A stretch of DNA of 28,326 nt from the NCBI GenBank assembly GCA_965234725.1, contig CBDDUX010000052.1:1-28326 (forward strand), in the 5' to 3' direction. Source of the DNA: Thermoplasmatota archaeon. GTDB taxonomy: Archaea > Thermoplasmatota > Penumbrarchaeia > Penumbrarchaeales > Penumbrarchaeaceae. Within the stretch, counting starts at the first letter, position 1, and every line of letters begins with the position of its first letter. Under the pieces are notes generated by a model. It saw only the letters and a list, made by a program, of their open reading frames with translations. It did no database searches and was not told the DNA's origin. The position numbers were made by a program, and so were the translations under genes. Shown piece by piece: positions 87 through 26,950 of this stretch.

Positions 87-1226
87 ATGGACCTGGAGCT
101 TGATGAGGAAAAGAACAATGTCTTGCAGATGGTCAAGGACCTGTGTATCAATGAGTTCGCTCCCATGGCGGCACATTATGATAAGACAGAGGAGTTCCCC
201 ATTGAGAATGTTAAACGTATGGGCGAGCTTGGATTGATGGGCATCCTGATCCCGAAGGAATACGGGGGAGCAGGTCTGGACTCGATCACTTATGCGCTCA
301 TTATCGAGGAGATATCGAAAGCATGCGCATCTACCGGTGCCATTGCATCGGTCCATAACTCCCTGGCCCCGTATATCATCTACAAGTATGGTTCTGAGGA
401 CCAGAAACGCAAGTATATCCCTCCTCTGGCAAGAGGAGAGGTTATTGGGGCTTTTGCGGCAACCGAACCCAATGCAGGCACAGATCTTGGTTCGATGAAG
501 GCCACAGCGGTCCTTGATGGTGATAATTATATGATCAACGGATCGAAGACCTTCATAACTGCCGGTCCGAAGGCCGGAACTATCATCGTTTTTGCCCTTA
601 CGGATCCTGAGGCGGGATACAAAGGGGTCAGTGCATTCATCGCGGAATCATCGTATGAGGGATACGAGGTAGGATCTGTCTTTGAGAAGATGGGAATAAG
701 AGCCTCAGAAACCTCAGAACTGTTCTTCAATGACATGCTGGTCCCTAAAGAGAACCTTCTTGGAAAGGAGGGTGACGGATTCAAGATCGCCCTTTCAAGC
801 ATTGACGGAGGCCGTATCGGCATTTCCGCTCAGGCTGTTGGTATCGCTCAGGCCGCTCTTGAACACAGCATATCCTATTCAAAGGAGAGGATACAGTTCG
901 GCAAACCGATCGGCAAACTGCAGGCGATCCAATGGATGATATCCGATATGGCTACCAGGATCGAGGCATCAAGACTTCTTACGATTAATGCAGCGATGTT
1001 GAAGGACAAGGGAGTCAGGTTCGGTAAGGAAGCCGCCATGGCAAAACTATTCTCCTCGGAAACCGCGGTATTCTGCACGAATAAGGCCATCCAGATCCAT
1101 GGTGGTTACGGTTATATGAGGGATAAGGAGATAGAGAGATTGTACCGCGATGCCAAGATAACCGAGATCTATGAGGGGACCTCAGAAGCACAAAAAATGG
1201 TGATCGCCTCCAATCTTCTCAGGTGA
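87..1226 (+). CDS. acd: Short-chain acyl-CoA dehydrogenase (butyryl-CoA dehydrogenase-like), copy 1
   Basis: 379 aa with ACAD motifs [49 protein letters not shown] and catalytic-Glu motif IYEGTSE. Confidence 0.95.
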
Positions 1227-1373
1227 ACATCACGATCCAACCGGATCATTCCCAGCATTTCCAAGGAAAGATGCACAGTTAGGACCAATGTCGATCCTTC
1301 GTCTTTGGGGTCCTTTACATGTTATCGGATATCAATATATACATTGACGGATGATTTTATCGGGGGATTCAAT

Positions 1374-1868
1374 ATGGTAGTTCCAGAAAATAAATTGAAG
1401 ATAAGCAAGCCTAAACCACTAGGCGAATTCAAGGAGTTCCTTGTCAAGGGCAATGTCCTGGCAATGGCCATCGGCATCATCATTGGCATAGCTTTCGGAG
1501 CAGTTATAAAATCAACTGTGGACGACGTCCTTATGCCGCCTGTCGGTCTTGCTCTGGGTGGAACGGATCTATCGAACACCTTCATTGTTCTCAAGGACGG
1601 AACCGTTGACGGTAATAAAACATCGGACTTCAACACCCTTGATGAAGCAAATGCTGCAGGCGCTGTAACCTTGCGGTATGGTCTTTTCATCAATTCACTG
1701 ATCAACTTCCTCATTATCGGGTTGATATTGTTCTTTGTAGTCAAATCAGCCGCAAAGATGGAGAAGAAAGCCGAAGAGCCGCCTCCGGAGACTAAACCCT
1801 GCCCGCACTGTGACACACAGATACCCATCAATGCTACAAGGTGCCCGAACTGCACCTCGAAACTCTAA
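1374..1868 (+). CDS. mscL: Large-conductance mechanosensitive channel with C-terminal zinc ribbon
   Basis: EFKEFLVKGNVLAMAIGIIIGIAFGAVI and YGLFINSLINFLII match MscL TM1/TM2. C-terminal CPHC..CPNC. Start moved to ATG 1374, which follows a GGGGGA SD. Confidence 0.92.
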   Translation: MVVPENKLKISKPKPLGEFKEFLVKGNVLAMAIGIIIGIAFGAVIKSTVDDVLMPPVGLALGGTDLSNTFIVLKDGTVDGNKTSDFNTLDEANAAGAVTLRYGLFINSLINFLIIGLILFFVVKSAAKMEKKAEEPPPETKPCPHCDTQIPINATRCPNCTSKL

Positions 1869-1883
1869 GATATGATATCCAGG

Positions 1884-2825
1884 TCACTTCAGGACCTGGG
1901 AAAGGACCTCTTCCGCTGCAGTATAGGGGTCCTTTTCTTTTTTCTCTATCTTATCGATCAGGTCTTCCACCTTCTCTTTGAAGACCGCTTCATCGAATAT
2001 CAGGTTCATCAATCGCTTCCTGATTATCTCCACCAGTTCTGCTTCGTACCTCCTCCTCCTTTTTACCCGGAACTGTTTGGTATCCATCAGGTATTCCATA
2101 TGTGAATCTATCTCATCGGAAATCTCTTTGATCCCGGTGCCAGTCTTTGCAATCGCCTGTAGGACCGGGACTCTCCTATCTCCTTTGTCCGTCGTAAGGT
2201 CCACCAGGCTCTCGATCTCGGCAACTGTCCTATCTATTCCGGGCCTGTCGGCTTTATTGATCACATAGATATCTGCGATCTCCATTATTCCGGCCTTGAT
2301 GGCCTGGATGGAATCCCCGAGGCCGGGAACAAGAACGACAAGGGTCGTATCTGCGATCTTGATCACATCAACCTCTGCCTGTCCCACACCAACGGTCTCG
2401 ACCATGATCACATCCTTGCCGGATGCATCGAGGATCTCCACGGTATCGTATACAGCACCAGTCAAGCCTCCCAGCATACCACGGGTCCCCATGGACCTGA
2501 TGAAGATCTCGTCATCAGTGGCCAGTTTCATCATCCTGATCCTGTCACCAAGGAGAGCTCCACCGCTGAAGGGACTGGTAGGGTCGATCGCTATGATCCC
2601 GACACTCTTTCCCTGTTTTCTGTATTCGAGCGCCATCTCGGAGACCAATGTCGATTTTCCAGCTCCCATCACTCCTGTTATACCGATGACCTGAGCTTTA
2701 CCACTGGCCTTGTGCAGTTCCTTCATCGGTTCGATGGCCTCCGGAGAACTGTTCTCGGCAAGACTGATCATCCTTGCAATGGCCCTTGGTTCCCCCTCGA
2801 GGACCCTCCGGGCGAGGTCGATCAT
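1884..2825 (-). CDS. meaB: Acyl-CoA mutase-associated GTPase chaperone (MeaB/ArgK)
   Basis: [13 protein letters not shown]-loop, [25 protein letters not shown] and NKAD. Overlaps the upstream B12-binding gene (ATGA). Confidence 0.95.
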
Positions 2826-3217
2826 TCTTTCACGTTCTCCCTTATGAATTTGATGATATCTTCCATATGGGTCCCGGGTCCGAACACCCCTTTGATACCG
2901 GCCTTGTTAAGTTCGGGAATGTCCTCTTCCGGGATTATTCCTCCACCCATGACCAGAACATCATCCATCCCCTTTTCTTTCAATAGGTTGGTTACATCGG
3001 TGAAGAGGGTCATATGTGCTCCTGAAAGAAGGCTGAGGCCTATGACATCAACATCTTCCTGGATGGCTGTCTGTATCACCATTTCCGCGGACTGGTGGAG
3101 ACCCGTATAAATGACCTCCATTCCTGCATCCCTGAGTGCTCTTGCAACGACCTTGGCACCTCTGTCATGGCCGTCAAGACCGGGTTTTGCAACCAGTACC
3201 CTGATCTTCCTTTCCAT
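2822..3217 (-). CDS. Acyl-CoA mutase small, cobalamin-binding subunit (IcmB/Mcm-C type)
   Basis: [11 protein letters not shown] (DxHxxG), GLSLLSGAH and GGIIP. Best-spaced start is ATG 3217 after GGAGTGA; alternatives are 3223 and 3226. Confidence 0.93.
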
Positions 3218-3238
3218 CTTCATCACTCCAGTTTGACT

Positions 3239-4915
3239 CTAGAATATTGCGGGTTCCTCGTATTCCCCGAATACTTCTCTCAGGACCTGGCAGGTTTCAC
3301 CAAGGGTATTGTAAGCGTGAACACACTCGAGGATATACGGCATTGTGTTCTCATCACCCTCGGCAGCCCTCCTCAATCTTTCCAATGCTTTATCGGCTTT
3401 GGACTGGTCCCTTTCCGCCCTGAGCTTCTTCAATCTATTGAATTGGATCTCTTCTCCTTTCTTGTCCATCTCGAGGATGGGGATGCCTATCTCTTCGTCC
3501 AACCGGTATTTGTTGACCCCGACAACGGTCCTCTCTCCGGAATCGATCTCCTTCTGGAGCTTGTAGGACGCTTCGGCGATCTCCCTCTGGAAGAAAGACC
3601 TCTCAATTGCCGGTATCACGCCCCCGAAGCTCTCGATCTTGTCGAAATACTTCATGGTCTCCTCTTCCATCCGATCGGTCAGCCATTCAAGATAGTATGA
3701 ACCCCCCAATGGATCCGCTGTTGCCGTGACTCCAGTTTCCTCCTCTATTACCTGCTGGGTCCTAAGAGCAAGTCTAACAGCTTTTTCAGAGGGGAGGGCC
3801 AGAGCCTCGTCCATGGAGTTCGTATGAAGGGATTGTGTTCCTCCCAATACCGCGGCCATGGCCTGGATCGCTACCCGGATAAGGTTGACCTCGGGCTGCT
3901 GGGCAGTGAGGCTGACCCCCGCGGTCTGCGTATGGAACCTCATGAGCATGGACCTCTGTTTCTTTGCTCCCAGTTCCTTCATCCCATTTGCCCATATCCT
4001 TCTGGCGGCTCTGTATTTTGCTATCTCCTCGAAGAAATCATTATGTGCATTGAAGAAGAAGCTCAACCTGGGGGCGAACGCATCGATGTCCAATCCCCTC
4101 TCCATTGCAGCCTTGACATAAGCGAATCCGTCCGCGAGTGTGAAAGCCAGTTCCTGGACCGCAGTGGATCCCGCCTCTCTGATATGATATCCGCTAATAG
4201 AGATAGTATTCCATTTCGGGATCTCCTTGAATCCGAATTCGAAGGTATCCACGGTTAACCTCATTGAAGGACCTGGAGGGAAAATGAAGGATTTCTGTGC
4301 GATGTATTCCTTCAATACATCATTTTGAATGGTCCCCCCTATCCGATCTCTGGAAATGCCTCTATTATCAGCATTTGCAATGTAGAAAGCCCACACGATA
4401 GGGGCCGGTCCGTTAATGGTCATTGAAGTTGTTATCCTGTCCACAGGTATATCCTTGAAAAGGATCTCCATGTCCTTCAGTGATGAGATCGCAACCCCGC
4501 ATTTACCGAACTCCCCTCTTGCCATAGGATGATCGGAATCGTATCCGTAAAGAGTGGGGTAGTCGAAGGCCACACTCAATCCTGTCTCTCCGTGCTCGAG
4601 AAGATATTTGTACCTTTGATTTGTCTCTTCAGCTGTTCCGAAACCAGCGAACTGCCTCATCGTCCAGACCTTGCCGCGGTACATGGTGGAGTGGACGCCG
4701 CGAAGGTAGGGGAATTCACCCGGAAATCCGGACCTTTCAAGATAATCATCTTTACTGATATCAAGGGGTGTGTAGAGCTCCTTAATCTCGGTCCAGGAAA
4801 GGTTCTCGAAACTCTCCTTCATTTCACCTTTCTTTTCCTTGAGCGGCATGTAGCAGGTCTTCTCCCATTCACGCCTTCTTCTTTCCAATTCGTTCAATAC
4901 CTTTTTGTCGAACAT
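3239..4915 (-). CDS. icmA: B12-dependent acyl-CoA mutase large subunit, isobutyryl-CoA mutase (IcmA)-type specificity residues
   Basis: 558 aa mutase TIM barrel with [18 protein letters not shown] (F89), [12 protein letters not shown] (Q207), SGYHIREAG and [17 protein letters not shown]. The family call is secure; the substrate call is inferred from residues. Confidence 0.8.
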
Positions 4916-4930
4916 ACGGACACCTCGATC

Positions 4931-5455
4931 TCAGAATTCGATCCCTTTCCTTGCAGCCACTCCCTTCTGGTAGAAGTGTTTAACTTCTCGCATCTCGGTG
5001 ACAAGGTCCGCGATGTCGATCAATTCCTGAGGGGCGTACCTTCCGGTGAAGATAAGCTCCATCCCAATGGGCTTATTGACTGCCAGTTCCAGGATATCTT
5101 CGACCTTCACCAGACCGAAATCGATCGCAACATTGATCTCATCCAGAATAACAAGGTCATGTTCCCCTTTACTGATGACCTGTTTCGCTCTTTCAAGTCC
5201 TCTTTCCGCGAGTTCAATATCCACCATCTCCGGTTCCTCTTTGGAAACGAACTCATCTCTCCCGTACTGTTCAATGGTGAATCCGGGGAGGAACCCAACT
5301 GAATCGATCTCGCTGTACCTTCTCCCCTTCATGAACTGTATCATGATGACCCTGCATCCGTCTCCTGAAGCCCTCAATCCGAGTCCAAGAGAGGCTGTGG
5401 TCTTTCCTTTCCCGTTCCCTGTATATACCTGGATATAACCGCGTTCGAAGGACAT
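4931..5455 (-). CDS. cobO: Cob(I)alamin adenosyltransferase (CobA/CobO/BtuR family)
   Basis: YTGNGKGKTTA, IQFMKG, LVILDEI, TGRYAP, ADLVTEM and GIEF. Likely start is ATG 5455 with an AGGGGA SD; the ORF track extends to 5518. Confidence 0.93.
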   Translation of the reverse strand: MSFERGYIQVYTGNGKGKTTASLGLGLRASGDGCRVIMIQFMKGRRYSEIDSVGFLPGFTIEQYGRDEFVSKEEPEMVDIELAERGLERAKQVISKGEHDLVILDEINVAIDFGLVKVEDILELAVNKPIGMELIFTGRYAPQELIDIADLVTEMREVKHFYQKGVAARKGIEF

Positions 5456-5596
5456 GGCCAATTCCCCTAATGTCCTATTCGATTTATTACTTTCTTCAAT
5501 AAGAAGACCATATGTCATATCTCAACTGTTTTTTATCAGTTCCATTGGTATGCTAGATAGAAACCTTTATTTTTTAAAATCCCGATGGGCGGCCGC
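5456..5596. promoter_or_regulatory. AT-rich divergent promoter region between the mutase operon and acyl-CoA dehydrogenase 2
   Basis: The flanking genes diverge. AAACCTTTATTTTTTAAAA at 5561-5579 resembles BRE/TATA. Confidence 0.5.
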
Positions 5597-6736
5597 ATGA
5601 TTCTCGAACTTAACGAACAGCAAAGAATGATCAGGAACATGGTGAGGGAGTTCGCCGAGAAGGAGGTCAAGCCCAGAGCTGCCGAACTCGACGAAAAGGA
5701 GGAGTATCCAACAGAATCCCTGAAGAGGATGGCTGAGCTCGGGATCCTGGGAACCATAATTCCCCAGGAATATGGTGGGGCAGGTCTGGACAATGTGACC
5801 TACGCCACCGTTATAGAGGAGATCTCAAGGGCTTGCGCATCAACAGGTGTTGTAACCTCCGTTCATAATTCCCTGACCTCATGGCCGATCATGACCTATG
5901 GGACCGAGGAACAGAAGAAAAAATACCTTCCCATCCTTGCAAAGGGGGAGAAGATAGGAGCTTTCGGAGGCACAGAACCCAATGCGGGATCTGACCTCGG
6001 AGCAATGCAGACCACTGCGGAATTGAAGGGTGACAAATACATCATCAATGGAACAAAGACATTCATTACGAGCGGTCCCAAAGCAGGGATCATAATCGTC
6101 TTTGCGGTCACCAACAAGGAGCTTGGTCCCAAAGGCATAAGCGCTTTCATTGTGGAGAGCAATTTCAAAGGTTATAGCGTAGGGGGAATATTCGACAAGA
6201 TCGGGATCAATGCCTCCCTCACCTCCGAACTTTTATTCGAGGATATGGAGGTCCCCAAGGAGAACCTTCTCGGAAAGGAGGGTGAGGGTTTCAAGATCGC
6301 TCTTGCCACCCTTGACGGTGGAAGGATCGGGATCGCCGCTCAGGCTGTTGGTATAGCCCAGGCAGCAATGGATGAATCCATCGAATATTCCAAGAACAGG
6401 CAGCAGTTCGGAAGGCCGATCTCAAAGTTCCAGGCAATACAATGGATGCTTGCCGAGATGGCAACGAACATCGAGGCGGCCAGGTTCCTCGTGTTGAATG
6501 CTGCGTACGCAAAGGACCAGGGAAAGAGGATAAGCAAGCAAGCGGCAATGGCAAAACTCTTCGCAGCCGAGACCGCTGTCGATGTCACGAACAAGGCGAT
6601 CCAGGTCCATGGCGGATACGGCTATACCAAGGAATATCCCGTGGAACGGCTCTACCGTGATGCAAGGATCACGGGCATCTATGAAGGGACATCCGAGGTC
6701 ATGAAGATGGTCATATCCGGAGCACTTCTGCACTAG
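5597..6736 (+). CDS. acd: Short-chain acyl-CoA dehydrogenase, copy 2
   Basis: Same ACAD motifs (TEPNAGSD, GRIGIAAQAVG, HGGYGY, IYEGTSE) and colinear with 87..1226. Start 5597 matches the paralog's length; alternative is 5585. Confidence 0.95.
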   Translation: MILELNEQQRMIRNMVREFAEKEVKPRAAELDEKEEYPTESLKRMAELGILGTIIPQEYGGAGLDNVTYATVIEEISRACASTGVVTSVHNSLTSWPIMTYGTEEQKKKYLPILAKGEKIGAFGGTEPNAGSDLGAMQTTAELKGDKYIINGTKTFITSGPKAGIIIVFAVTNKELGPKGISAFIVESNFKGYSVGGIFDKIGINASLTSELLFEDMEVPKENLLGKEGEGFKIALATLDGGRIGIAAQAVGIAQAAMDESIEYSKNRQQFGRPISKFQAIQWMLAEMATNIEAARFLVLNAAYAKDQGKRISKQAAMAKLFAAETAVDVTNKAIQVHGGYGYTKEYPVERLYRDARITGIYEGTSEVMKMVISGALLH

Positions 6737-6860
6737 ATCTGAAATTCATTGGGGGGCCATTTTGGAGGATCTCGATCATTTGAACGAAGAACGTATCTTG
6801 AGATGGAACCTTTCCGAGTTCCGGAATCATCTATATGATACCTCCATCATACTCCCTTCC

Positions 6861-7150
6861 AGAGGGAAGGACCTTATATTGACGGCATGGTACAGGGTAT
6901 TGCCTTTAGAGGTCGATCCCACTCTGATAGAACATCCCGCCGCACAGAAGACCGCTGCAGTCTTCCCTTCGGATAACGGAGGGGAGCGGGATGGTCAAGG
7001 CCTTCATCCTTCTGAACAAAGGAAACGAGGCAGGGAGGCGGTCCTCGGGGTATCCAGAACACCATGGAGGAGAACACCCCTCTGAAATAGCGATATAGAA
7101 AGATGGAGTTTGTAAAGGAAATACCGAAAACTCAATCAGGTAAGATAATG
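6861..7150 (+). pseudogene. Decayed C-terminal remnant of an AMP-forming acyl-CoA synthetase
   Basis: Three frames give RGKDLILTAWYRVLPLEVDPTLIEHPA, then MVKAFILLNKG (6991), then IQNTMEENTPLK*RYRKMEFVKEIPKTQSGKIM. These match the ANL-family A8 to A10 region (R.DD.I...GYRI.P.EVE..L..HPA, VKAFIVL, PKT.SGKI). Two frameshifts and a TAG at 7088. Confidence 0.8.
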
Positions 7151-7216: not shown

Positions 7217-7981
7217 ATGAACATCGTGGTATGTGCAAAACAGGTTGTGGATGTTGGGGAGATCAAGTTGAATCCCTCCACCAACAAACCCGTGATCGAC
7301 GGGATCCCAAAGAAGATCAGCGATATCGACAAGAATGCCGTGGAGGAGGCGATCAGGATAAAGGATAAGGTAGGTGGTAAGATCACTATCCTGACCGTAG
7401 GCCCTCCGGACGCCAGGGAGAAGGTAAAGGAACTTCTTGCCATGGGGGCGGATGAGGGAGTGATCGTTCAGCCTCCGGAAAAGGCCGATTATCACCTTAT
7501 AGGTAAGGCGCTGGCAAAAGGAATCGAGAAGATAGGCGGTGTTGACCTTGTCCTCTGCGGGGAAGCTTCCATCGATATGTTCTCCGGACAGGTCGGTCCA
7601 AGGATAGCAGGATATCTCAACATCCCCCAGATCACCTATGCCTTCAAACTGGAGGCGGGAGGGGACCGGATCGTTGCTGATCGGAACATGGGGGATAAGA
7701 TGGTGAGGACGGAATCCTCCTACCCGACAGTCGTAACGGTCACTAAAGAGATCAATGAACCAAGGCTTCCGAGCCTAATGCAGATCCTTGGCTCAGCCAG
7801 TAAACCGATAAACAACTGGTCCCTGGCGGATATTGGAATGGAAGGGGACCAGCCAAAATTGAATGTGGTTGATGTAAACGGCATTGGGATGGAGAGGAAG
7901 AACATAGTCTTCAAGGATGACATTGACGAAGCAGTGAACGAACTTGCCAATAAATTGGCCAAGGATGGAGTCCTGGGGTGA
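7217..7981 (+). CDS. etfB: Electron transfer flavoprotein beta subunit
   Basis: MNIVVCAKQV, DKNAVEEAIRIK, LAMGAD, GQVGP and INEPRLPSL. True start is 7217 after a GGAGTGA SD; the 7103 extension belongs to the pseudogene. Confidence 0.93.
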   Translation: MNIVVCAKQVVDVGEIKLNPSTNKPVIDGIPKKISDIDKNAVEEAIRIKDKVGGKITILTVGPPDAREKVKELLAMGADEGVIVQPPEKADYHLIGKALAKGIEKIGGVDLVLCGEASIDMFSGQVGPRIAGYLNIPQITYAFKLEAGGDRIVADRNMGDKMVRTESSYPTVVTVTKEINEPRLPSLMQILGSASKPINNWSLADIGMEGDQPKLNVVDVNGIGMERKNIVFKDDIDEAVNELANKLAKDGVLG

Positions 7982-7985
7982 TATC

Positions 7986-8939: not shown

Positions 8940-8986
8940 GGTCCAGGCTCATATCATGATCATTCTATCGTTCCGAGGGGGATCCC

Positions 8987-9514: not shown

Positions 9515-9524
9515 GTGATAGAAA

Positions 9525-18392: not shown

Positions 18393-18407
18393 GAGAGGTG
18401 GGAGGAA

Positions 18408-18833
18408 ATGAGCGAAGAATTTGAACCGAAGGTCGTTGGGTTCCTGTGCAACTGGTGCTCCTATGCCGGAGCTGACCTAGCGGGAACGAGCCGGATACAG
18501 TATCCATCCAATATCAGGGTGATCAGGGTCATGTGCTCCGGGTCCGTTGACAGTATCTATGTGAACAGGGCGCTGATCGAGGGTGCTGATGCTATCCTTA
18601 TCGGCGGCTGCCATCTGGGTGACTGCCATTATCTCAACGGGAACTACAAGGCCAGAAGAAAGATGGTGCTGTTGAAGAACATTCTCACTACACTTGGCAT
18701 GGAGCCGGAAAGGATCTGGGTCAAGTGGATATCCGCATCCGAGGGCCAGAAGTTCGCTGATACGGTCAAGGAGATAGTGGATGAGACCAAGAAGCTGGGC
18801 CCGAACCCTCTTGGCCAGAGGTGGAACGTTTAG
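18408..18833 (+). CDS. mvhD: MvhD [2Fe-2S] adaptor subunit, copy 1
   Basis: FLCNWCSYAGAD, RVMCSG, GCHLGDCHY and SASEG. Confidence 0.93.
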   Translation: MSEEFEPKVVGFLCNWCSYAGADLAGTSRIQYPSNIRVIRVMCSGSVDSIYVNRALIEGADAILIGGCHLGDCHYLNGNYKARRKMVLLKNILTTLGMEPERIWVKWISASEGQKFADTVKEIVDETKKLGPNPLGQRWNV

Positions 18834-18840
18834 AGGTGTT

Positions 18841-19944
18841 ATGATGACTGGTTACGAACTACCGATAAAGGATGACGTTCCGACAACGGTTAATGAGATG
18901 TTGAAGGATTGGTTGGTCAAAGGTAAGGTTGATGCCGTAATTGCCATGCAGGAAACCCCCACCGGAAAGTCCGCCTTTCCGGCAATGGTCTCCGATCCAT
19001 CAAAACTGAAAACGAATGTTTTCGCACCCCTACTACCTGTTTCCACCGGTACGATGTTATCTCGATTGACCAAGGTCAGAGGATTCGAGAAACCCGTGGC
19101 AGTGGTCCTCCGTTCCTGTGAACTGAGGGCTCTGGTGGAACTTGTCAAGCTGAACCAGGCAGATCTGATGAATATCATCCTGGTTGGTGTGGACTGTCCA
19201 GGGACATTCCCCATGAACACATTTTCCTCCTATCCAGGGAAGGAATCCCCCACTGATGCAGTGCTAAAAGGCGGTGAGGCCAGTAAATACATGAGGACCG
19301 CCTGTCTCAACTGCAAGGACCCGGTGGTGGACAAGGCGGATATCGTGATCGGGATCTACGGCGCTGACCTGAAGAAAGGTCTAATTCTGGATGTATTGAC
19401 AGATGCCGGAAATGGACTAATTGATGGTATGGAGCTCAAAGAGATCAAGGACTCCGGGAAGAGAAAGAAGGCCGTGGAAGAAGTGAGGAAGGAGAAGCAG
19501 AAGAACAGGGAGGCCTTCCTCAAGGAGAAGTCAGATATCAAAGGTATTGACAGGCTATTGGAGTTCTTCGATACCTGCGTCAACTGCCATAACTGCATGG
19601 GAGCATGCCCGATATGCTACTGCAAGGAGTGCCTTTTCGAGTCTTCGGTCTTCGACATGGAAGCCAATAAATACATGTCCAAATCCAAGGGAAAGGGGGC
19701 ATTCAAGACACCGACGGATTCCCTTCTGTTCCATGTTACGAGGTTCAACCACATGATACTCTCATGTGTGCAGTGCGGTCTTTGTGAGCAGGCCTGCCCA
19801 TCGAACATCCCACTCATGGATATAATCACAGGAATTGCCGAAAACGCCCAGAAGGAGTTCGAATACCTTCCGGGTTCCGATCCGGAGGCCCCCGTACCCA
19901 TGGTGGTCTACAGGGAGGAGGAATTCCAGGATGTGGGGGAGTGA
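18841..19944 (+). CDS. FdhB/FrhB-family iron-sulfur protein
   Basis: VAVVLRSCELRALVEL, GVDCPGT, RTACLNC, CVNCHNCMGACPICYCKEC and FHVTRFNHM..SCVQCGLCEQACP. Start 18841 or 18844 after GAGGTG. Confidence 0.8.
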   Translation: MMTGYELPIKDDVPTTVNEMLKDWLVKGKVDAVIAMQETPTGKSAFPAMVSDPSKLKTNVFAPLLPVSTGTMLSRLTKVRGFEKPVAVVLRSCELRALVELVKLNQADLMNIILVGVDCPGTFPMNTFSSYPGKESPTDAVLKGGEASKYMRTACLNCKDPVVDKADIVIGIYGADLKKGLILDVLTDAGNGLIDGMELKEIKDSGKRKKAVEEVRKEKQKNREAFLKEKSDIKGIDRLLEFFDTCVNCHNCMGACPICYCKECLFESSVFDMEANKYMSKSKGKGAFKTPTDSLLFHVTRFNHMILSCVQCGLCEQACPSNIPLMDIITGIAENAQKEFEYLPGSDPEAPVPMVVYREEEFQDVGE

Positions 19945-19947
19945 TGG

Positions 19948-20610
19948 ATGGAAGCCGTTGATTCGAGGAAGATCGATCCGAATTTCAAGTTCGAGATAGC
20001 CAAACAGGAAGGCGGAGAAGGCATAATGAAATGCTATGCCTGCGGAACCTGCACTGCGAGATGTCCCGAGATGGATGTCAAGGAGGAATGGAATCCCCGA
20101 ACTGTGATCAGGAAGGCATTGCTTGGCCTGAAGGAGGAGGTATTGACCTCGGAGTTCATCTGGATATGTTCGGCTCATTACAGATGTCTTGAAAAATGCC
20201 CCCAGAAGGTTAACGTAAAAGGATTGATGAACCAGATAAGGGAGCAGAGGATCAGAGATGATCAAGATGGGGTTGTAGTTGAAGGAAGGGATGATTCCTT
20301 CAAATACATGATAGCCGAAGGGGAGTCCGGAGGGGAGATCTACAACTGTTTCTCATGCGGGACATGTACTGCAGGCTGCCCCGAAAGGGACCTTGACCCG
20401 CTTTATTCCCCCAGGAAGGTCATCAAGGCATCGCTTCTGGGAATGAAAAAGAAGGTCTATGAGAACAGGTTCGTTGAGATCTGCTCCACGCATTACAGAT
20501 GTCTGGAGCAGTGTCCCCAGGGTGTCGAGATCCCTAAACTCATGTATGCGATCAGGGAACTGGCAATAAAGGAAGGATATTCAAGGGAGGGTCTTGATGA
20601 GTGCAGGTAG
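19948..20610 (+). CDS. Tandem-duplicated HdrC-like iron-sulfur protein
   Basis: Two repeats: CYACGTCTARCP..CSAHYRCLEKCPQ and CFSCGTCTAGCP..CSTHYRCLEQCPQ. Confidence 0.8.
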   Translation: MEAVDSRKIDPNFKFEIAKQEGGEGIMKCYACGTCTARCPEMDVKEEWNPRTVIRKALLGLKEEVLTSEFIWICSAHYRCLEKCPQKVNVKGLMNQIREQRIRDDQDGVVVEGRDDSFKYMIAEGESGGEIYNCFSCGTCTAGCPERDLDPLYSPRKVIKASLLGMKKKVYENRFVEICSTHYRCLEQCPQGVEIPKLMYAIRELAIKEGYSREGLDECR

Positions 20611-23600
20611 TACCACAGGAGCGGTTGCCGTAGTAGGAGGAGGAATTGCCGGTGTCCAGTCGGCACTGGACCTGGCCGATATGGGATTCAAGGTCTACCT
20701 TTTGGAGAAGAGTCCCGCAATAGGCGGGATCATGGCGATGCTGGACAAGACATTCCCCACCAACGACTGCTCGATGTGCATACTGTCACCGAAACTGGTG
20801 GATTGTTCCAGGCATCCCAATATCCATATCATGACACTTGCCGAAGTTAAAGGAGTCGAAGGCAAGGCTGGGAACTTCAAGGTAAAGGTCCATCAGAAAC
20901 CCAGGTACATTGACATCGAGAAATGTACCTCCTGCGGGGACTGCGAGTCGGTATGTCCGATCAAGATCCCATCTCAGTTCGAGCAGGGGCTCGTTATGAG
21001 GAAAGCGGCCTACAAATACTATGCTCAGGCCATCCCCAATTCCTTTGTTATCGATAAGGAGGGTATACCAGGCTACAGAGGCTGTATCGATTGCGGAGCT
21101 TGTACAAAAGCCTGTAAGGCCGGAGCCGTGGACCACTCCATGAAGGCAAAGGACCTAGAACTCGATGTTGGAGCTGTCATACTTGCCATGGGGTCGGCTC
21201 CGTTCGATCCCAAGATCAAGAGGGAATTGGGCTACGGCAGGTTCAAGAATGTTGTTACATCGCTTGAGTTCGAAAGGATCCTTTCGGCTTCAGGTCCTTA
21301 TGAAGGTAAGATCCTCAGACCCGGAGACGGAAAACATCCGAAGAAGATCGCATGGATCCAATGTGTGGGATCCCGTGACAGGAACATCGACCAGGAGTTC
21401 TGTTCCTCCATGTGCTGTATGTACACGGCCAAGGAGGCTGTGATCGCCAAGGAGCACGAGTCCTCGATAGAACCCACGATCTTCTACATCGATGTAAGAT
21501 CGTTCGGAAAGGATTTCGACAGGTATATCGAGAGGGCCAAGAAGGAGCAGGATATCAGATATGTCAGGTCCAGGATCTCGGAGATATACGAGAACGACTG
21601 CGGGGACCTTCAGATAAGGTATGAGGATACCGAAGGGGAACTCCATGAGGAGACCTATGACATGGTGGTCCTTTCGATAGGACTCTGCATGACGGGGGAT
21701 CGATCCAAGGTATTGAAGGACCTTGGTCTCGATGTGAACGATTTCGGTTTCGCTTTTTCGAACCAGAAGGACCCTGTTTCCCTTGTTAGACCTGGTATAT
21801 TCATGGCCGGGAGTTTCCTGGAGCCACAGGCGATCCCTGAAAGCGTGATGCAAGCTTCTGCTGCAGCATCACAGGTGGCTGCGCTCCTCAGGGATTCGAG
21901 AGGGTCCCTTGTTACTGCAAGACCGGAGTACAAGGAGAGGGATGTGAGCAAGGAGGAGGCCAGGATCGGTGTCTTCATCTGCCACTGCGGCATCAATATC
22001 GGCAGCCAGGTGGATGTTCCAAAGGTTGTGGAATATGCCAGGACACTACCGAACGTGGTCTATGCCAGTGACAATCTCTATACCTGTTCGGAGGACACCC
22101 AGATCAAACTTGGAGAGATAATAAAGAGTGAGAAACTGAACAGGGTGATCGTTGCCGCTTGCACCCCAAGGACCCATGAACCACTCTTCAAGAAATCGAT
22201 GGCAGAAGCGGGTCTTAACCCTCATCTTCTGGAGATGACGAACATCAGGGAACACTGCTCCTGGGTCCATTCAGATCCTGAATTGGCCACATTGAAGTCG
22301 AAGGAGCTAATATCCATGACAGTGGCCAAATCAAGGCTGCTGGAATCGATTCCTGCCATGAAGATCGATGTGGACCAGACGGCTCTGGTGATCGGGGGAG
22401 GGGTTGCAGGTATGACCTCTGCCATTTCTCTTGCCGATCAGGGATTCAAGACGGTCCTTCTGGAAAAAGAAGATAGACTTGGGGGGAGATTGAACTACCT
22501 CAGGTTCACTGTCGAGGGGATCGATATCGATGAACTGTTGAAGGACCTCAAAGGGAAGGTTGAGGGACACGAGAACATCGAGGTCATTTTAGGAGCTTCC
22601 ATTTCTGGAATAAAGGGATACGTGGGCAACTACGATGTCACGATCAAGAGCAATGAGGTTGAGAAGGAACACCGGATCGGTGCGATCGTGGTGGCTGCAG
22701 GGACCAGGGAGCATGTTCCCACTTCCTATGGTTATGGAGATGATGACAGGATCCTGACACAATCTGAGGTGGAGGGATATATCGGAGGGTTAAAACCGGG
22801 AGAGATCAGGTCAGGTGAGACCTTCGTCATGATCCAGTGCGTAGAATCCAGGGAGGGTGAAAGGAACTACTGCTCCCGGACCTGCTGTATGGGGTCTCTG
22901 AAGAACGCTCTTAAGATCAAGGAGATAAATCCAAGGGCAGAAGTATACATCCTTTATCGCGACCTCATGACATACGGTTTCTGGGAGAGATATTACAGGA
23001 AGGCCAGGGACCTTGGCGTCATTTTCATGCAGTATTCGATCGATGGTAAACCGGAAGTGGATATCGGTGAGAAGGTCTCCGTAAAGGTCATGGAACCCAT
23101 GCTCCAAGAAGAGATAGAGATAGGAGCGGATCACCTGATCCTTGCAACAGGGATGGACCCGATCGAAGATAACGAGGAGATCGCCAAGTTATTGAAGGTC
23201 CCTCTGAACCAGGACGGATATTTCCTGGAGGCCCATGTCAAATTGAGGCCAGTTGATTTTTCAACCAGAGGTGTCTACCTTGCAGGAAGCTGCCATACAC
23301 CCAAGTTCATAGGTGAATCCATCTACCAGGCCCAGGCAGCAGCTGCCAGAGCTGCCACGATATTATCCAGTCCAACCCTTGAGGCGGAACCCAACATTGC
23401 AGTCGTTGATGTCGACATGTGCTCCGGATGCAGGACCTGCATATCGCTCTGCCCCTACAACGCCATCGATTCCGTGACGGAGGAGATCGACGGGGTGGAG
23501 GTGACCCATGCACAGATCAATGAAGGATTATGCCAGGGATGCGGTACCTGTGTTGCAGCATGCCCCTCCGGTGCGATAAACCAGAGAGGGTTCAAGGACG

Positions 23601-23656
23601 ATCAGATACTTGCGATGATCAAAGCTCTTAGTACATGCTCCGGAGGTGGTAACTGA
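20597..23656 (+). CDS. hdrA: Large double-module HdrA (~1020 aa), intact
   Basis: GGGIAG module with ferredoxin insert and CSSMCC, internal GVFICHCG domain, second GGGVAG module with CSRTCC, and C-terminal 2[4Fe-4S]. Confidence 0.92.
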   Translation: MSAGSTTGAVAVVGGGIAGVQSALDLADMGFKVYLLEKSPAIGGIMAMLDKTFPTNDCSMCILSPKLVDCSRHPNIHIMTLAEVKGVEGKAGNFKVKVHQKPRYIDIEKCTSCGDCESVCPIKIPSQFEQGLVMRKAAYKYYAQAIPNSFVIDKEGIPGYRGCIDCGACTKACKAGAVDHSMKAKDLELDVGAVILAMGSAPFDPKIKRELGYGRFKNVVTSLEFERILSASGPYEGKILRPGDGKHPKKIAWIQCVGSRDRNIDQEFCSSMCCMYTAKEAVIAKEHESSIEPTIFYIDVRSFGKDFDRYIERAKKEQDIRYVRSRISEIYENDCGDLQIRYEDTEGELHEETYDMVVLSIGLCMTGDRSKVLKDLGLDVNDFGFAFSNQKDPVSLVRPGIFMAGSFLEPQAIPESVMQASAAASQVAALLRDSRGSLVTARPEYKERDVSKEEARIGVFICHCGINIGSQVDVPKVVEYARTLPNVVYASDNLYTCSEDTQIKLGEIIKSEKLNRVIVAACTPRTHEPLFKKSMAEAGLNPHLLEMTNIREHCSWVHSDPELATLKSKELISMTVAKSRLLESIPAMKIDVDQTALVIGGGVAGMTSAISLADQGFKTVLLEKEDRLGGRLNYLRFTVEGIDIDELLKDLKGKVEGHENIEVILGASISGIKGYVGNYDVTIKSNEVEKEHRIGAIVVAAGTREHVPTSYGYGDDDRILTQSEVEGYIGGLKPGEIRSGETFVMIQCVESREGERNYCSRTCCMGSLKNALKIKEINPRAEVYILYRDLMTYGFWERYYRKARDLGVIFMQYSIDGKPEVDIGEKVSVKVMEPMLQEEIEIGADHLILATGMDPIEDNEEIAKLLKVPLNQDGYFLEAHVKLRPVDFSTRGVYLAGSCHTPKFIGESIYQAQAAAARAATILSSPTLEAEPNIAVVDVDMCSGCRTCISLCPYNAIDSVTEEIDGVEVTHAQINEGLCQGCGTCVAACPSGAINQRGFKDDQILAMIKALSTCSGGGN

Positions 23657-24075
23657 TGGGAGACTTCGAGCCTTCGGTGGTCGCATTTCTGTGTAATTGG
23701 TGCTCGTATGCCGGAGCGGACCTTGCTGGTACTTCCCGGTTGAAATATCCTCCCAACGTCAGGTCCATTCGTGTCATGTGTTCCGGAAGGGTGGACCCGG
23801 TGTTCGTTCTGGATGCTATAAAGGAAGGGATCGATGGAGTGTTGGTGGCAGGATGTCATCCGGGGGACTGCCATTATCAATCCGGTAATTACAAGACCAA
23901 CAGGAAGGTCAAGCTGATCAAGAAGATGCTTTTCGAATTGAACATTGATCCCAAAAGGGTGAGGTTCGAGTTCATCTCCGCTTCCGAGGGTCAAAAGTTC
24001 GCAGATGTTGTAACGGATTTTGTGGGACAGCTCAAGGAAATGGGTCCCAATCCGCTTAAGGGGGAATGCCAGTGA
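23656..24075 (+). CDS. mvhD: MvhD [2Fe-2S] adaptor subunit, copy 2
   Basis: FLCNWCSYAGAD, RVMCSGRV and GCHPGDCHY; TGATG overlap with hdrA. Confidence 0.95.
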   Translation: MGDFEPSVVAFLCNWCSYAGADLAGTSRLKYPPNVRSIRVMCSGRVDPVFVLDAIKEGIDGVLVAGCHPGDCHYQSGNYKTNRKVKLIKKMLFELNIDPKRVRFEFISASEGQKFADVVTDFVGQLKEMGPNPLKGECQ

Positions 24076-25052
24076 CAGGAGAGAAACTGAAATTCGCATT
24101 CTACTGGGCTGCCAGCTGCGGGGGCTGCGAGATAGCGGTCCTTGACATAGATGAAAAGATCCTGGAGGTCGCAGCTGTCGCTGATATCCTCTTCTGGCCT
24201 GTTGCGATAGATACCAAATACTCTGATGTAGAGAAGATGGAAGATGGTTTCATCGATGTCTGTTTCTTCAACGGGGCCATCAGGAACTCGGAGCAGGAGG
24301 AACTGGCCCATTTATTGAGAAAGAAATCCAAGGTACTGGTGGCATTCGGCTCATGTGCGATGACCGGAGGAATTCCAGGGCTTGCAAATATGTCGAACAG
24401 GGAAGGTGTCTTTGATACCGTCTATCACGATAATGCATCCATAGAGAATCCTGATGGGACCGAACCCGAGGTGTCTTCTCAGGTTCCGGAGGGTGAACTG
24501 ACAATACCTGAATTCTATGATACTGTTAGGACCCTGGACCAGACAGTGGATGTCGATTACTACTTACCAGGTTGTCCACCACCAACCAACCTGATCCTGA
24601 CTGCGGTTGATGCGATAATCAAGGGAGAACTCCCCCCCAAAGGATCCGTGATCGCTCCTGCCAAATCGGTGTGTGATGAATGCAAGTACGAGAAATCCGA
24701 TAAGAGGATAACGGAGATCAAGAGAATATACGAAGTTGAGAAGCTGGAGGATAAATGTCTTCTCGAGCAGGGGATAATCTGCATGGGTCCTGCAACCAGA
24801 GGAGGGTGTGGGGCTCCTTGCACAGAAGCGAACATGGCCTGCACCGGTTGTGGAGGTCCCACTCCGAATTCTCTTGACCAGGGGGGGAAGATGATATCCG
24901 CTCTTGCTTCGATCCTTGGGTTGGACGGAGAGGAGAACTATTCCGATGAAGAGGTGGATGCTTTAATTGATAAAGTTGTGGACCCGATAGGGACCTTCTA
25001 CAAATACGGTCTTCCCTCTGCCCTTATCAAAAGGAAGGTGATGAAAAAATGA
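24066..25052 (+). CDS. mvhG: [NiFe]-hydrogenase small subunit, group 3c (MvhG)
   Basis: SCGGC, FGSCA, PGCPP, CDEC and CMGPATRGGC..C..CTGC; no Tat leader. Alternative start GTG 24072. Confidence 0.92.
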   Translation: MPVTGEKLKFAFYWAASCGGCEIAVLDIDEKILEVAAVADILFWPVAIDTKYSDVEKMEDGFIDVCFFNGAIRNSEQEELAHLLRKKSKVLVAFGSCAMTGGIPGLANMSNREGVFDTVYHDNASIENPDGTEPEVSSQVPEGELTIPEFYDTVRTLDQTVDVDYYLPGCPPPTNLILTAVDAIIKGELPPKGSVIAPAKSVCDECKYEKSDKRITEIKRIYEVEKLEDKCLLEQGIICMGPATRGGCGAPCTEANMACTGCGGPTPNSLDQGGKMISALASILGLDGEENYSDEEVDALIDKVVDPIGTFYKYGLPSALIKRKVMKK

Positions 25053-26506
25053 GGTCCGTCGTAATAGATCCCATTACCAGATTGGAAGGACATGGTAAGA
25101 TCAACATCTTCCTGGACGATAACGGGAATGTTGCCAATGCATACCTTCAGATTCCGGAGCTCCGTGGCTTCGAGAAGTTCGCTCAGGGAAGAAGAGCGGA
25201 GGATATGCCCCAGATCACATCACGGATTTGCGGAGTATGTCCGGTGGCACACCATTTTGCCGCTACCAAGACATTGGATTCTGCGTTCAAGGTGGACCCT
25301 CCAATCGCAGCAAAGAAGCTGAGAGAGCTGATGAACTGCGGTTATTACATCTACGACCACACGCTGCATTTCTATTACCTGGGAGGTCCTGATTTCGTTG
25401 TCGGACCTGATGCTCCACCTGGAAAGAGGAACATTCTTGGTGTGATCGAGAAGGCCGGTGTTGATATCGGCAAGGAAGTTATCAAGCACAGGGCATACGG
25501 GCAGAGGATCACTGCGATCCTTGGTGGAAAGGCAACACATCCTGTTTGCGGTCTACCCGGTGGTGTTTCCAAGGGATTGAACCGAGATGAAGTGAAAGAG
25601 ATAAAGGAGATGGGAAAGTCCTGCGTGGAATTCGCCAAGTTCTCCCTGGGTCTTTTCGAGGACATCGTGTTGAAGAACAAGGATTATGTGGATCTGATTA
25701 CCAAGGGTCCCTATCAATTGAATACTTACAACATGGGTCTGGTCGATGAGAAGAACAAGGTGAACTTCTACGATGGGGATATAAGAGTGAAGGATCCCGA
25801 TGGAAATGAATTCCTGAAGTTCAAAGTGGATGATTATCAGGAAGAGATAGCTGAAAGAGTGGAGAAATGGTCCTACATGAAGTTCCCGTATCTGAAGAAG
25901 GTCGGGTGGAAGGGCTTTGTTGATGGAAAGGATTCCGGTTTCTATAGGGTAGGACCTCTTGGAAGGTTGAATGCCTCTGACGGTATGGCAACCCCTCTGG
26001 CTCAGAAGGAATATGACAGGATGTACGAGATCCTGGGTGGGGATCCGATCAACTCAACATTGGCATTCCATTGGGCCAGATTGATAGAGTTGTTGTATGC
26101 GACAGAGAGGACCATGGAACTGGTTGACGATGAGGATGTTCTCTCAGATAAGATAAGGAATCCTGTTGGTGAACCCGGAGAAGGATTCGGTGTTGTGGAG
26201 GCTGCAAGAGGGACATTGATACATCACTATGATGTGGATGAGAACGGTCTCATAAAGAAGGCGAACCTCATTGTTGCTACAACGAACAATGCAGGTGCCA
26301 TCACCATGTCCGTCAGGGATGCTGCAAAGGGCCTGATCAAGAACGGAAATGTTACGGATGGGTTATTGAACATGGTTGAGATGGCCTTTCGTGCCTATGA
26401 TCCCTGTTTCGGTTGTGCAACCCATACAATGCCCGGACAGATGCCTCTAATTGCAAATATCTATGATAAGAACGAGAGATTGCTGAGGTCCATCAAGAGG
26501 GATTAG
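25049..26506 (+). CDS. mvhA: [NiFe]-hydrogenase large subunit, group 3c (MvhA)
   Basis: PITRLEGHG, L1 RICGVC and L2 RAYDPCFGCATH followed by a cleavable C-terminal extension. Confidence 0.95.
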   Translation: MRSVVIDPITRLEGHGKINIFLDDNGNVANAYLQIPELRGFEKFAQGRRAEDMPQITSRICGVCPVAHHFAATKTLDSAFKVDPPIAAKKLRELMNCGYYIYDHTLHFYYLGGPDFVVGPDAPPGKRNILGVIEKAGVDIGKEVIKHRAYGQRITAILGGKATHPVCGLPGGVSKGLNRDEVKEIKEMGKSCVEFAKFSLGLFEDIVLKNKDYVDLITKGPYQLNTYNMGLVDEKNKVNFYDGDIRVKDPDGNEFLKFKVDDYQEEIAERVEKWSYMKFPYLKKVGWKGFVDGKDSGFYRVGPLGRLNASDGMATPLAQKEYDRMYEILGGDPINSTLAFHWARLIELLYATERTMELVDDEDVLSDKIRNPVGEPGEGFGVVEAARGTLIHHYDVDENGLIKKANLIVATTNNAGAITMSVRDAAKGLIKNGNVTDGLLNMVEMAFRAYDPCFGCATHTMPGQMPLIANIYDKNERLLRSIKRD

Positions 26507-26950
26507 ATGAGGACCGTTGTGGTCGGTGTGGGTAATCCTATCCTTGGTGATGACGGGGTGGGGATACATGTTGCAAGGGACCTAAAGGGTAAATTGGAAG
26601 TGGATATCAGGGAGGCTTATACCGGTGGTTTGAACCTTCTGGACCTGATCATCGGTTATGATAGGGCGATCCTTGTAGACGCTGTGTATATGGAGGATAT
26701 GGCCATCGGTGAGGTCCGGGTGATGGGTTTGGATGAATTGGGGACGGCCCATTCCTCGAACCCCCATGATGCGACCTTGATGGAAGCGTTGGAGATGTCG
26801 AAAAGAATGGGGGAAGAGAGGATCCCCGAAGAGATAGTTCTTGTTGGAATAAAGATAGAGAGGGTGGATGAGTTCAGTGATGAATTGAGTCCCAAAGTGT
26901 CATCTTCAATAGAGAGGGCCTCTGAAGTGGTAAAAGAATTGATCGAATAA
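26507..26950 (+). CDS. Hydrogenase maturation endopeptidase (HyaD/HycI family)
   Basis: VVGVGNPILGDDGVG, LVDA and SNPH; immediately after mvhA. Confidence 0.93.
   Translation: MRTVVVGVGNPILGDDGVGIHVARDLKGKLEVDIREAYTGGLNLLDLIIGYDRAILVDAVYMEDMAIGEVRVMGLDELGTAHSSNPHDATLMEALEMSKRMGEERIPEEIVLVGIKIERVDEFSDELSPKVSSSIERASEVVKELIE

Follow-up and report, generated by a model that had tools for sequence, protein, structure and literature searches.

A candidate soluble gene array connecting acyl-CoA dehydrogenase and electron transfer flavoprotein with Hdr-type proteins and a [NiFe]-hydrogenase in a Thermoplasmatota archaeon

The 28,326-bp stretch of DNA analysed here (the window) is one whole contig (C52) within the 3.54-Mb, 114-contig assembly of a Thermoplasmatota archaeon, a metagenome-assembled genome (MAG) that is 97.65% complete and, as no McrA match was obtained, is considered non-methanogenic. 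An array on its + strand is opened by an acyl-CoA dehydrogenase (ACAD) gene, acd2, and continues with a run of 16 genes (7217-26950) in which the genes for an electron transfer flavoprotein (ETF), etfBA, are followed by hdrCBA, an NAD(H) module lodged among further HdrA-type proteins, two mvhD genes and the genes of a group 3c [NiFe]-hydrogenase. The array is best explained as encoding a soluble flavin-based bifurcation/confurcation machine of the HdrABC-MvhADG type, in which the ETF, with a probability of roughly 0.55, would replace the heterodisulfide at HdrB and couple the acyl-CoA/enoyl-CoA pair to H2, NAD(H) and ferredoxin. Gene identities were assigned by Pfam and NCBIfam profile searches of the 26 window proteins, and every gene named in a preliminary description of this DNA was recovered by these searches. 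The genes of the array are as follows, those of the run being given in their order from etfB onwards.

5585..6736, + strand: acd2, ACAD of 383 aa (Pfam), opening the array.
7217..7981, + strand: etfB, 254 aa (PF01012), start set by relatives.
7986..8939, + strand: etfA, 317 aa (PF01012 and PF00766), start taken from alignment, in a reading frame open from 7944.
8987..9514, + strand: hdrC, 175 aa, with two [4Fe-4S] motifs (Fer4_8, TIGR03290).
9525..10403, + strand: hdrB, 292 aa, with two CCG domains (PF02754 twice).
10400..12358, + strand: hdrA, 652 aa, classical and without a fused MvhD (NF040770 HdrA2 model, 821 bits).
12359..13300, + strand: NuoE-like protein of 313 aa, comprising half an HdrA flavin adenine dinucleotide (FAD) domain (aa 17-134; HdrA2 model 139-257) and a NuoE/HoxE-like [2Fe-2S] part (NuoE).
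13297..15156, + strand: NuoF/HydB-like flavin mononucleotide (FMN)-NADH subunit, 619 aa (PF01512, PF10589).
15126..18392, + strand: 1088-aa fusion of a NuoG/HoxU N-terminal part, the second half of a split HdrA and a complete HdrA (NCBIfam, blastp).
18408..18833, + strand: mvhD1, 141 aa (PF02662, E 5.9e-52).
18781..19944, + strand: FrhB/FdhB-like Fe-S protein, 387 aa (PF04432, 25.8 bits against a cut-off of 23.3), with two [4Fe-4S] motifs.
19948..20610, + strand: double HdrC-like Fe-S protein, 220 aa (TIGR03290 twice, Fer4_8 twice).
20594..23656, + strand: fused HdrA dimer of BamE-like architecture, 1020 aa (blastp against hdrA).
23656..24075, + strand: mvhD2, 139 aa (PF02662, E 3e-56).
24066..25052, + strand: mvhG, [NiFe]-hydrogenase small subunit (PF01058, VhuG model).
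25049..26506, + strand: mvhA, group 3c [NiFe]-hydrogenase large subunit (PF00374, VhuA model, 420 bits).
26507..26950, + strand: hydrogenase maturation protease (PF01750, TIGR00072).

Spacing between neighbours in the run ranges from -53 to +47 nt, the gap between etfA and hdrC being 47 nt, in agreement with the overlaps or gaps below 50 nt reported in the preliminary description, whose etfA start at 7944 is replaced by 7986, the most likely position judging by the alignment. No T6 run is found on the + strand between 5571 and 27123, while a T8 occurs at 27124, after the protease gene; the missing T6 runs would favour a single transcript only weakly, because about two are expected by chance in this interval (own arithmetic). 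A promoter/terminator scan returned counts at or below the shuffled expectation and is uninformative, as its consensus is bacterial and the host archaeal. None of the 16 run proteins, HdrB and HdrC included, contains a hydrophobic 19-residue stretch with a Kyte-Doolittle (KD) value of at least 1.6, and the sole window protein with such a stretch is MscL (1305-1868), which lies outside the run. Nor was an ETF-QO/FixX domain (ETF-QO, ETF:quinone oxidoreductase) or Rnf found in the genome, in keeping with the earlier view of the run as all soluble.

The CxxCxxCxxxC motifs of HdrC begin at residues 35 and 79, and HdrB, whose closest PDB match is 5odc_B, has all ten CCG cysteines (9, 41, 42, 76, 79, 152, 192, 193, 228 and 231). 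The classical HdrA shows a GxGxxG at residue 147 plus Fe-S motifs, with an N-terminal cluster and inserted and C-terminal ferredoxin domains. The closest PDB matches of EtfB are the bifurcating-type 5ol2_B, 6fah_B and 4kpu_B, and those of EtfA are 6fah_A and 4kpu_A. Equivalents of Arg146 and Asp93', which are named as bifurcating-site residues (PMC10279923), are retained in the window ETF; other positions of the site are changed, with DMFSGQVGP for DGDTAQVGP, KADY for GADT, Glu for Ile157 and a different residue for Thr94'. A complex prediction of HdrB and HdrC with domain II of EtfA (residues 196-331) returned a score of 0.00, its controls were not run, and it counts neither way.

Five HdrA-type units are encoded in the run according to blastp against hdrA, namely the four of two fused HdrA dimers with BamE-like architecture and the classical HdrA; an mvhD gene follows each dimer. 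The additional HdrAs of the preliminary description are present, and all HdrA-type units together number five rather than three. The first dimer is split by a NuoE-NuoF-NuoG(N) insert, and the NAD(H) module, already recognised in that description, is now seen to sit inside this HdrA (NCBIfam, blastp). Residues 21-136 of the 313-aa protein match hdrA 144-260, while in the 1088-aa fusion, which also matches 9mqx_A and HdrA structures, aa 176-499 match hdrA 243-557 (HdrA2 model positions 250-560) and aa 536-1084 match hdrA 3-649. The 1020-aa dimer is likewise built of two units but contains no insert (aa 8-418 matching hdrA 140-555 and aa 457-1009 matching hdrA 3-648), with GxGxxG at residues 15 and 601 and with HdrA structures matched three times. 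The NuoF-like subunit has an additional N-terminal 2Fe-2S domain and a C-terminal 2x[4Fe-4S] domain; it scores 745 bits to the NiFe-HydB 7t2r_B (residues 33-616) versus 373 bits to Nqo1, matches 9n5u_B and 8a6t_B over its full length, and is of the bifurcating Bfu type. The module, which splits the gene in three (12359-18392), sits at the inserted-ferredoxin position of the HdrA FAD domain, and in relatives (L018:12429-16934; L027:8686-12552) a GltD/NfnB-like Fer4_20+Pyr_redox_2 module is found there within a single protein. This looks like the swapping of NAD(P)H modules at one HdrA plug-in site.

The 387-aa Fe-S protein is identified as FrhB/FdhB-like on its PF04432 match and its Atlas neighbours, which score 0.97 and carry FrhB_FdhB_C. 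F420 is unlikely to be its partner, because the F420 FO-synthase CofH has no match in the genome. Both MvhDs and the group 3c hydrogenase named previously are upheld, the latter by the VhuG and VhuA models and by the MvhA motifs RICGVCPVAHH and AYDPCFGCATH, which fit the L1 (ICGxCxxxH) and L2 (AYDPCxxCATH) motifs of group 3c (PMC6085437).

Elsewhere in the genome no paralogs of hdrA, hdrB, hdrC or mvhD and no second full-length etfA or etfB were detected (tblastn, E < 1e-6), contig C50 carrying no more than an EtfA-like fragment of 48 residues, and the CCG domains of the genome are just the two of the window HdrB. McrA (PF02249) has no match in the 97.65%-complete genome, control genomes having responded, which accords with the earlier remark that no methanogenesis genes were recognised; a methanogenic host had been named beforehand as a condition that would speak against the coupling. 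The genome checks proposed in the preliminary description likewise yielded no DsrC, a thiolase-hbd-crt-acd cluster on contig C6, which has two ACADs in all and an ADP-forming acyl-CoA synthetase, and six POR_N-type 2-oxoacid oxidoreductases; the window showed no further candidate for a disulfide system. Two NuoD/group-4-like genes occur on contigs C58 and C114. Contig C82 resembles a Hox-type NuoEF-[NiFe] locus, and another [NiFe] locus is also present, while a second NuoEF pair is found on contig C8, its NuoF being 54% identical to that of the window.

The whole array recurs in genomes of the same genus and the same family (G003, G004, G006, G007, G008 and G023), and this conservation indicates that the arrangement is not a chance neighbourhood. 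EtfA identity follows kinship, at 72-95% in the genus, 61-71% in the family (full-length matches) and 39-57% in the class. Linkage of etfBA-hdrCBA with acd, for which a synteny comparison had been proposed, is found in several gene orders in Thermoplasmatota and Bathyarchaeia. Five forms are distinguished.

Form 1: long, as in the window.
Form 2: long, with NuoE-NuoF-NuoG(N) replaced by Fer4_20 + Pyr_redox_2 (GltD/NfnB-like) in a 1500-aa protein (G006, G008, G023).
Form 3: short, acd-etfBA-hdrCBA-mvhD-mvhGA-protease (L036, L041, L096, L098).
Form 4: compact, acd-etfBA-hdrCB-HdrA(GltD-like insert)+MvhD (G031 and G035, f8 relatives).
Form 5: rearranged, mvhD-protease-mvhA-mvhG< hdrCBA> <etfA-etfB-acd (L054, L072, L087).

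The isolate of locus L087, M17C-73-05, is listed as DHVEG-1 (PMC10477458). In Bathyarchaeia, four loci have the order hdrA< hdrCB> acd> <etfAB. In the compact form the ACAD is the only substrate-level enzyme of the unit, and in G031 a 2-oxoacid:ferredoxin oxidoreductase diverges upstream of it; this compact unit is followed by a 652-aa protein with at least three CCG stretches (L027:12546-14504, + strand). In the second CCG motif of the HdrB of the f8 relatives (L027:7679-8689 and L028:10192-11208) the final Cys is replaced by Gly (CPWGH versus CPWCH), a change reminiscent of the ETF-accepting proteins EtfD and BamD with their four-Cys CCG clusters. At loci L063, L085, L086 and L093, hdrCBA and the add-on genes defined below occur without etf. 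In a 95%-identical same-genus copy (G004:C15; L013, L014), nuoF, hdrA, hdrC, acd1 and the 220-aa gene are each in two frames, as a result of either assembly errors or decay.

Comparison of the 80 closest HdrB loci, nearly all from Thermoplasmatota or Thermoplasmatales MAGs, yielded a quick tree with SH-aLRT support only. In the window clade etfA is directly upstream of hdrC in all 15 loci judged, two more being cut by contig ends, and in the outgroup clade (f8-type Thermoplasmatota and Bathyarchaeia) all seven judged are etf-linked. The middle clade has 10 etf-linked loci among 24 judged, some in a different order, the other 14 being without etf within 10 kb; where at least 8 kb is available on both sides, etf lies within 10 kb in 17 of 31 loci. 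Two contigs titled Bacteroidales bacterium (L107) and Ca. Aenigmatarchaeota (L098) are probably mis-binned, as both fall inside Thermoplasmatota groups on this tree.

Co-conservation of etf/acd with hdr/mvh had been set beforehand as a test of the coupling, and it is borne out. In a sample of 151 Thermoplasmatota genomes that are 80% complete or more, counted by hand, an HdrB ortholog (at least 50% identity) occurs in 30 and an EtfA ortholog (at least 47% identity, full length) in 31, with both present in 29, one only in three and neither in 119. The three exceptions are an 81%-complete genome (G011), one whose contig stops 277 nt past etfA (G010) and one whose best HdrB is 47% identical (G050). 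Of the 29 genomes with both, 16 have them on the same contig and no more than 5 kb apart. In family f20 both are found in eight of ten genomes, seven of these having them on different contigs, and the remaining two have neither; all 16 genomes of family f11 have only a distant HdrB (34-39%), and an EtfA match occurs in one. Fisher's test gives 1.4e-27 for the co-occurrence, a value that is overstated since the relatives are not independent.

Upstream of the run lie a further ACAD gene and a divergently oriented mutase set (meaB, icmB, icmA and the adenosyltransferase gene), along with a gene remnant between acd2 and etfB.

87..1226, + strand: acd1, ACAD of 379 aa (Pfam Acyl-CoA_dh_N/M/1).
1884..2825, - strand: meaB, mutase-associated G-protein chaperone (PF03308, E 7.5e-86).
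2822..3226, - strand: icmB, B12-binding small subunit of an acyl-CoA mutase (PF02310).
3239..4915, - strand: icmA, Icm-type acyl-CoA mutase large subunit (PF01642, E 3.9e-222).
4931..5518, - strand: ATP:corrinoid adenosyltransferase of the CobO/BtuR type (PF02572).
6762..7085, + strand: orf107, remnant of a gene for an AMP-forming acyl-CoA synthetase, matching the C-terminal part of 541-544-aa AMP-binding proteins.

Both ACADs reported earlier (87-1226 and 5585-6736) are supported by Pfam; acd1 also stands beside meaB in G003, G004, G007 and G023, and acd2 is upstream of etfBA in every relative examined from the family, as well as in G031 and G035, which are relatives at class level. The earlier assignment of an Icm-type mutase with its chaperone and adenosyltransferase agrees with the Pfam matches. 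In alignments to 2xij/8gju and 4r3u, icmA has Phe (RQF) and Gln (AQK) at the Tyr89 and Arg207 positions of methylmalonyl-CoA mutase (MCM), a substitution which we take to be the mark of Icm, and the Asp typical of 2-hydroxyisobutyryl-CoA mutase (HCM) is missing. On these residues the assignment as an Icm-type mutase with split large and small subunits and MeaB holds, and an identity as MCM is rejected on the Phe/Gln positions, by the same presumed rule. An intact 541-544-aa synthetase gene is located between acd2 and etfB in G003, G007 and G010, and has been lost in the window genome and in G004.

The preliminary description had proposed either the ETF or a thiol carrier acting through HdrB as the high-potential partner of HdrA. 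The ETF is supported because the genome has no other ETF acceptor or CCG protein, because the ACAD is the only substrate-level enzyme of the compact f8 unit and because, according to the available part of a preprint, ETF is the acceptor at the HdrBC-like BamD of the Geobacter class II benzoyl-CoA reductase (BCRII; bioRxiv 10.64898/2026.04.10.717634); a thiol carrier is the less probable partner. In the proposed coupling, electrons would pass from acyl-CoA via the ACAD, the alpha-FAD of the ETF, the noncubane clusters of HdrB and then HdrC to the HdrA flavin, where these high-potential electrons would be paired with low-potential electrons of ferredoxin. The electron pair would exit, or in reverse enter, either by MvhD-MvhG-MvhA, where H2 is exchanged, or by the Bfu-type NuoEF(G) module, where NAD(H) is exchanged; the two-electron partner at mid potential would be H2 or NAD(H). 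Both fused HdrA dimers may, with the second MvhD and the FrhB-like and double HdrC proteins, form an add-on between HdrA and MvhD-MvhGA, and relatives without this add-on have a plain acd-etfBA-hdrCBA-mvhDGA.

The metabolic setting is probably the breakdown of valine, isobutyrate or butyrate. A 2-oxoacid:ferredoxin oxidoreductase would supply reduced ferredoxin and isobutyryl-CoA, Icm would convert the latter to butyryl-CoA and the ACAD would reduce the ETF, after which one ferredoxin pair and one ETF pair could be confurcated to two H2 (or NADH). The reverse, an H2- or NADH-driven reduction of enoyl-CoA with reduction of ferredoxin that would feed membrane complexes, is equally allowed by the sequence, with the acyl-CoA synthetase gene of the relatives and the diverging oxidoreductase of G031 leaning towards the oxidative direction. 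In its fullest form, the proposal envisages a soluble ACAD-ETF-Hdr-Mvh supercomplex that would drive acyl-CoA electrons (about -10 mV) to H2 with ferredoxin, with the ETF as heterodisulfide substitute, syntrophic or fermentative oxidation of branched- and short-chain acyl-CoA that dispenses with membrane-bound reverse electron transport, and interchangeable NAD(P)H modules; this wider scheme is tentative and, taken as a whole, rather doubtful.

The array is best classed as a variant of the HdrABC-MvhADG and BCRII-type bifurcating systems in which ETF would be the partner. With the MvhADG-HdrABC of hydrogenotrophic methanogens (5odc, 8rvu) it shares all six subunit families, and the short form of the relatives lines up that gene set in a single row. 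Unlike in the methanogens, the window host has no mcrA, etfBA and an ACAD gene directly precede hdrC, and four HdrA-type units, a Bfu-type NADH module, a second MvhD, an FrhB-like protein and a double HdrC are added; the proposed high-potential partner is the ETF rather than CoM-S-S-CoB.

The available text of the BCRII preprint (bioRxiv 10.64898/2026.04.10.717634) describes a complex Bam[(BC)2DEFGHI]2 in which ETF is the high-potential acceptor, built from the NuoEFG/HydBC-like BamGHI, the MvhD-like adaptor BamF, the fused HdrA dimer BamE and the HdrBC-like BamD. By its account, cryo-ET and assays show that ETF docks through domain II where BamD has its noncubane clusters; BamGHI and BamF feed the BamE flavin, whose high-potential electron is accepted by ETF, and this ETF can hand electrons on to butyryl-CoA dehydrogenase. 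As far as that text goes, the window matches BCRII in a NuoEF-type module, an MvhD adaptor, fused HdrA dimers, an HdrBC-like CCG part and ETF genes, the likeness of its dimers to BamE being one of described architecture and not of alignment. In contrast to BCRII, no AOR-family domain (the tungsten BamBC module) is found among the 26 window proteins by Pfam, and the low-potential side of the window is a [NiFe]-hydrogenase and, presumably, ferredoxin. The window also differs in having a separate classical HdrCBA and NuoEF(G) inside an HdrA dimer gene rather than a separate BamGHI; no selenocysteine was seen in it, and its host is an archaeon.

With the bifurcating Bcd-EtfAB and CarCDE enzymes (5ol2, 6fah, 4kpu) the window shares an ACAD and an ETF of the same broad group and, if NADH is the partner, the same overall reaction (enoyl-CoA + NADH + ferredoxin), yet it differs in several changed ETF bifurcating-site positions and in an operon that puts an HdrA-type bifurcation site behind the ETF. 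The HdrBC-homologous CCG clusters of the mycobacterial EtfD (EMO) accept electrons from ACAD-loaded ETF, and EtfD is, in the available text of PMC13083937, a membrane-anchored menaquinone reducer with one CCG cluster being a linear [3Fe-4S]; the window HdrCB is instead soluble, lacks a transmembrane anchor, has ten Cys and stands next to HdrA. The FlxABCD-HdrABC of anaerobic bacteria places an NAD(P)H module and an MvhD-like protein on HdrABC, with its disulfide partner given as unknown in the available portion of PMC6687939. In the window, by contrast, the NAD(H) module is NuoEF/HydBC-like and inside HdrA rather than FlxA-type, and the array also includes a hydrogenase and an ETF. The literature searched contained no account of an archaeal etfBA-hdrCBA-mvh array.

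Several points weigh against the ETF as electron donor or acceptor at HdrB. The HdrB has all ten CCG cysteines, whereas the ETF-accepting EtfD and BamD, in the available accounts, each have one altered CCG cluster, and since all ten are retained a true disulfide substrate or thiol/disulfide carrier is possible. Fourteen closely related hdrCBA loci, all among those flanked by 8 kb or more on either side, lack an etf gene within 10 kb. Butyrate oxidation alone gives no reduced ferredoxin, and with standard potentials set at -10 mV (acyl/enoyl couple), about -480 mV (ferredoxin) and a third value of -414 mV, confurcating H2 formation would by our own arithmetic need about 0.2 Pa H2 or less. Lastly, the bifurcating-like ETF and the ACAD might be a self-contained enzyme of the Bcd/EtfAB type that needs no Hdr. 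In one alternative, two independent systems lie side by side, a self-contained bifurcating ACAD-EtfAB that couples NADH, ferredoxin and enoyl-CoA, and an Hdr-Mvh complex that with its add-ons turns over an unknown thiol/disulfide, either a protein or of low molecular weight, the operon reflecting shared regulation of fermentative redox balance. It draws on the best scores of EtfB and EtfA against 5ol2, 6fah and 4kpu with the Arg146 and Asp93' equivalents kept, on an HdrB with both CCG motifs complete and most like that of methanogens, on the same 14 loci and on papers on non-methanogen Hdr which, in their available text, assume an unknown thiol carrier (PMC6687939, PMC9723716). This alternative is unlikely, though the most credible of those considered: the genome lacks DsrC and McrA and no other disulfide system was seen in the window, other ETF bifurcating-site positions are non-canonical (DMFSGQVGP, KADY, Ile157 to Glu), the etfA/hdrB ortholog pair co-occurs even when unlinked, the compact f8 unit contains no substrate enzyme besides its ACAD, and an ETF partnering an Hdr-type module has been shown experimentally for BCRII, going by the available preprint text.

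The Bfu-type NuoF-like subunit, its replacement in relatives by a GltD/NfnB-like NAD(P)H module in the identical position and the four loci with hdrCBA and the add-on in the absence of etf (L063, L085, L086, L093) would also suit a multi-HdrA hub for ferredoxin, NAD(H) and H2, acting as a transhydrogenase or bifurcating hydrogenase, with HdrCB in a structural or storage role and acyl-CoA electrons arriving only via the NAD(H) pool. Such a hub is improbable, given that HdrCB shows strong conservation and keeps every cluster ligand, that the ETF would be left without any acceptor in the genome and that the short form (L036, L041, L096), which lacks the NAD(H) module, keeps acd-etfBA before hdrCBA-mvhDGA. 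HdrABC and MvhADG are closest in the PDB to methanogen enzymes, as would be expected of a CoM-S-S-CoB heterodisulfide reductase of methanogenic Thermoplasmatota, but with neither McrA (controls having responded) nor CofH in the genome and an operon context of acyl-CoA metabolism, this function can practically be dismissed.

Newly observed here are the five HdrA-type units, the split dimer with its embedded NADH module, the concentration of the genome's only ETF, Hdr and CCG proteins in one run and the several linked gene orders. If the coupling through ETF is true, it would provide a testable answer to what HdrABC does in organisms without CoM-S-S-CoB, where schemes for syntrophs and uncultured archaea, in the available text of PMC6687939 and PMC9723716, leave an 'unknown thiol/disulfide' for Hdr. 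The array would then represent a soluble route from the acyl-CoA/enoyl-CoA couple to H2 in sediment archaea; in bacterial butyrate oxidisers the accepted route from acyl-CoA to H2 is given, in that portion of PMC6687939, as membrane-bound reverse electron transport via ETF:quinone oxidoreductases. It would further extend the ETF-to-Hdr-type coupling of the Geobacter BCRII to archaea and to hydrogen metabolism. The array also shows a modular HdrA site that takes an NAD(P)H module of either the NuoEF(G) or the GltD type.

The window clade of the HdrB tree includes L041 (ex4484_6) and L040, the latter from isolate M17C-73-04, which PMC10477458 assigns to Thermoplasmatota (EX4484-6), and the host class is therefore probably EX4484-6. 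The class EX4484-6 bears the name Ca. Penumbrarchaeia, and a protein-amended enrichment of this sediment archaeal class has been reported in a paper that makes no mention of ETF (PMC12220078). At 49.7%, the GC content of the window is the highest of the 114 contigs (contig mean 44.8%, sd 2.5), and 5585-26950, with 51.0%, ranks top among 392 genome windows of 20 kb. The mis-binning that this composition might suggest is rejected, because EtfA identity declines with kinship and relatives carry the whole array, and the high GC content is read as a trait of the gene set. In the last 2 kb of the contig the GC content falls to 41%, and a 105-aa open reading frame without a family match (27433-27750, + strand) overlaps the gene for a TIR-domain protein (PF13676; 27643-28302, - strand) in this AT-rich tail.

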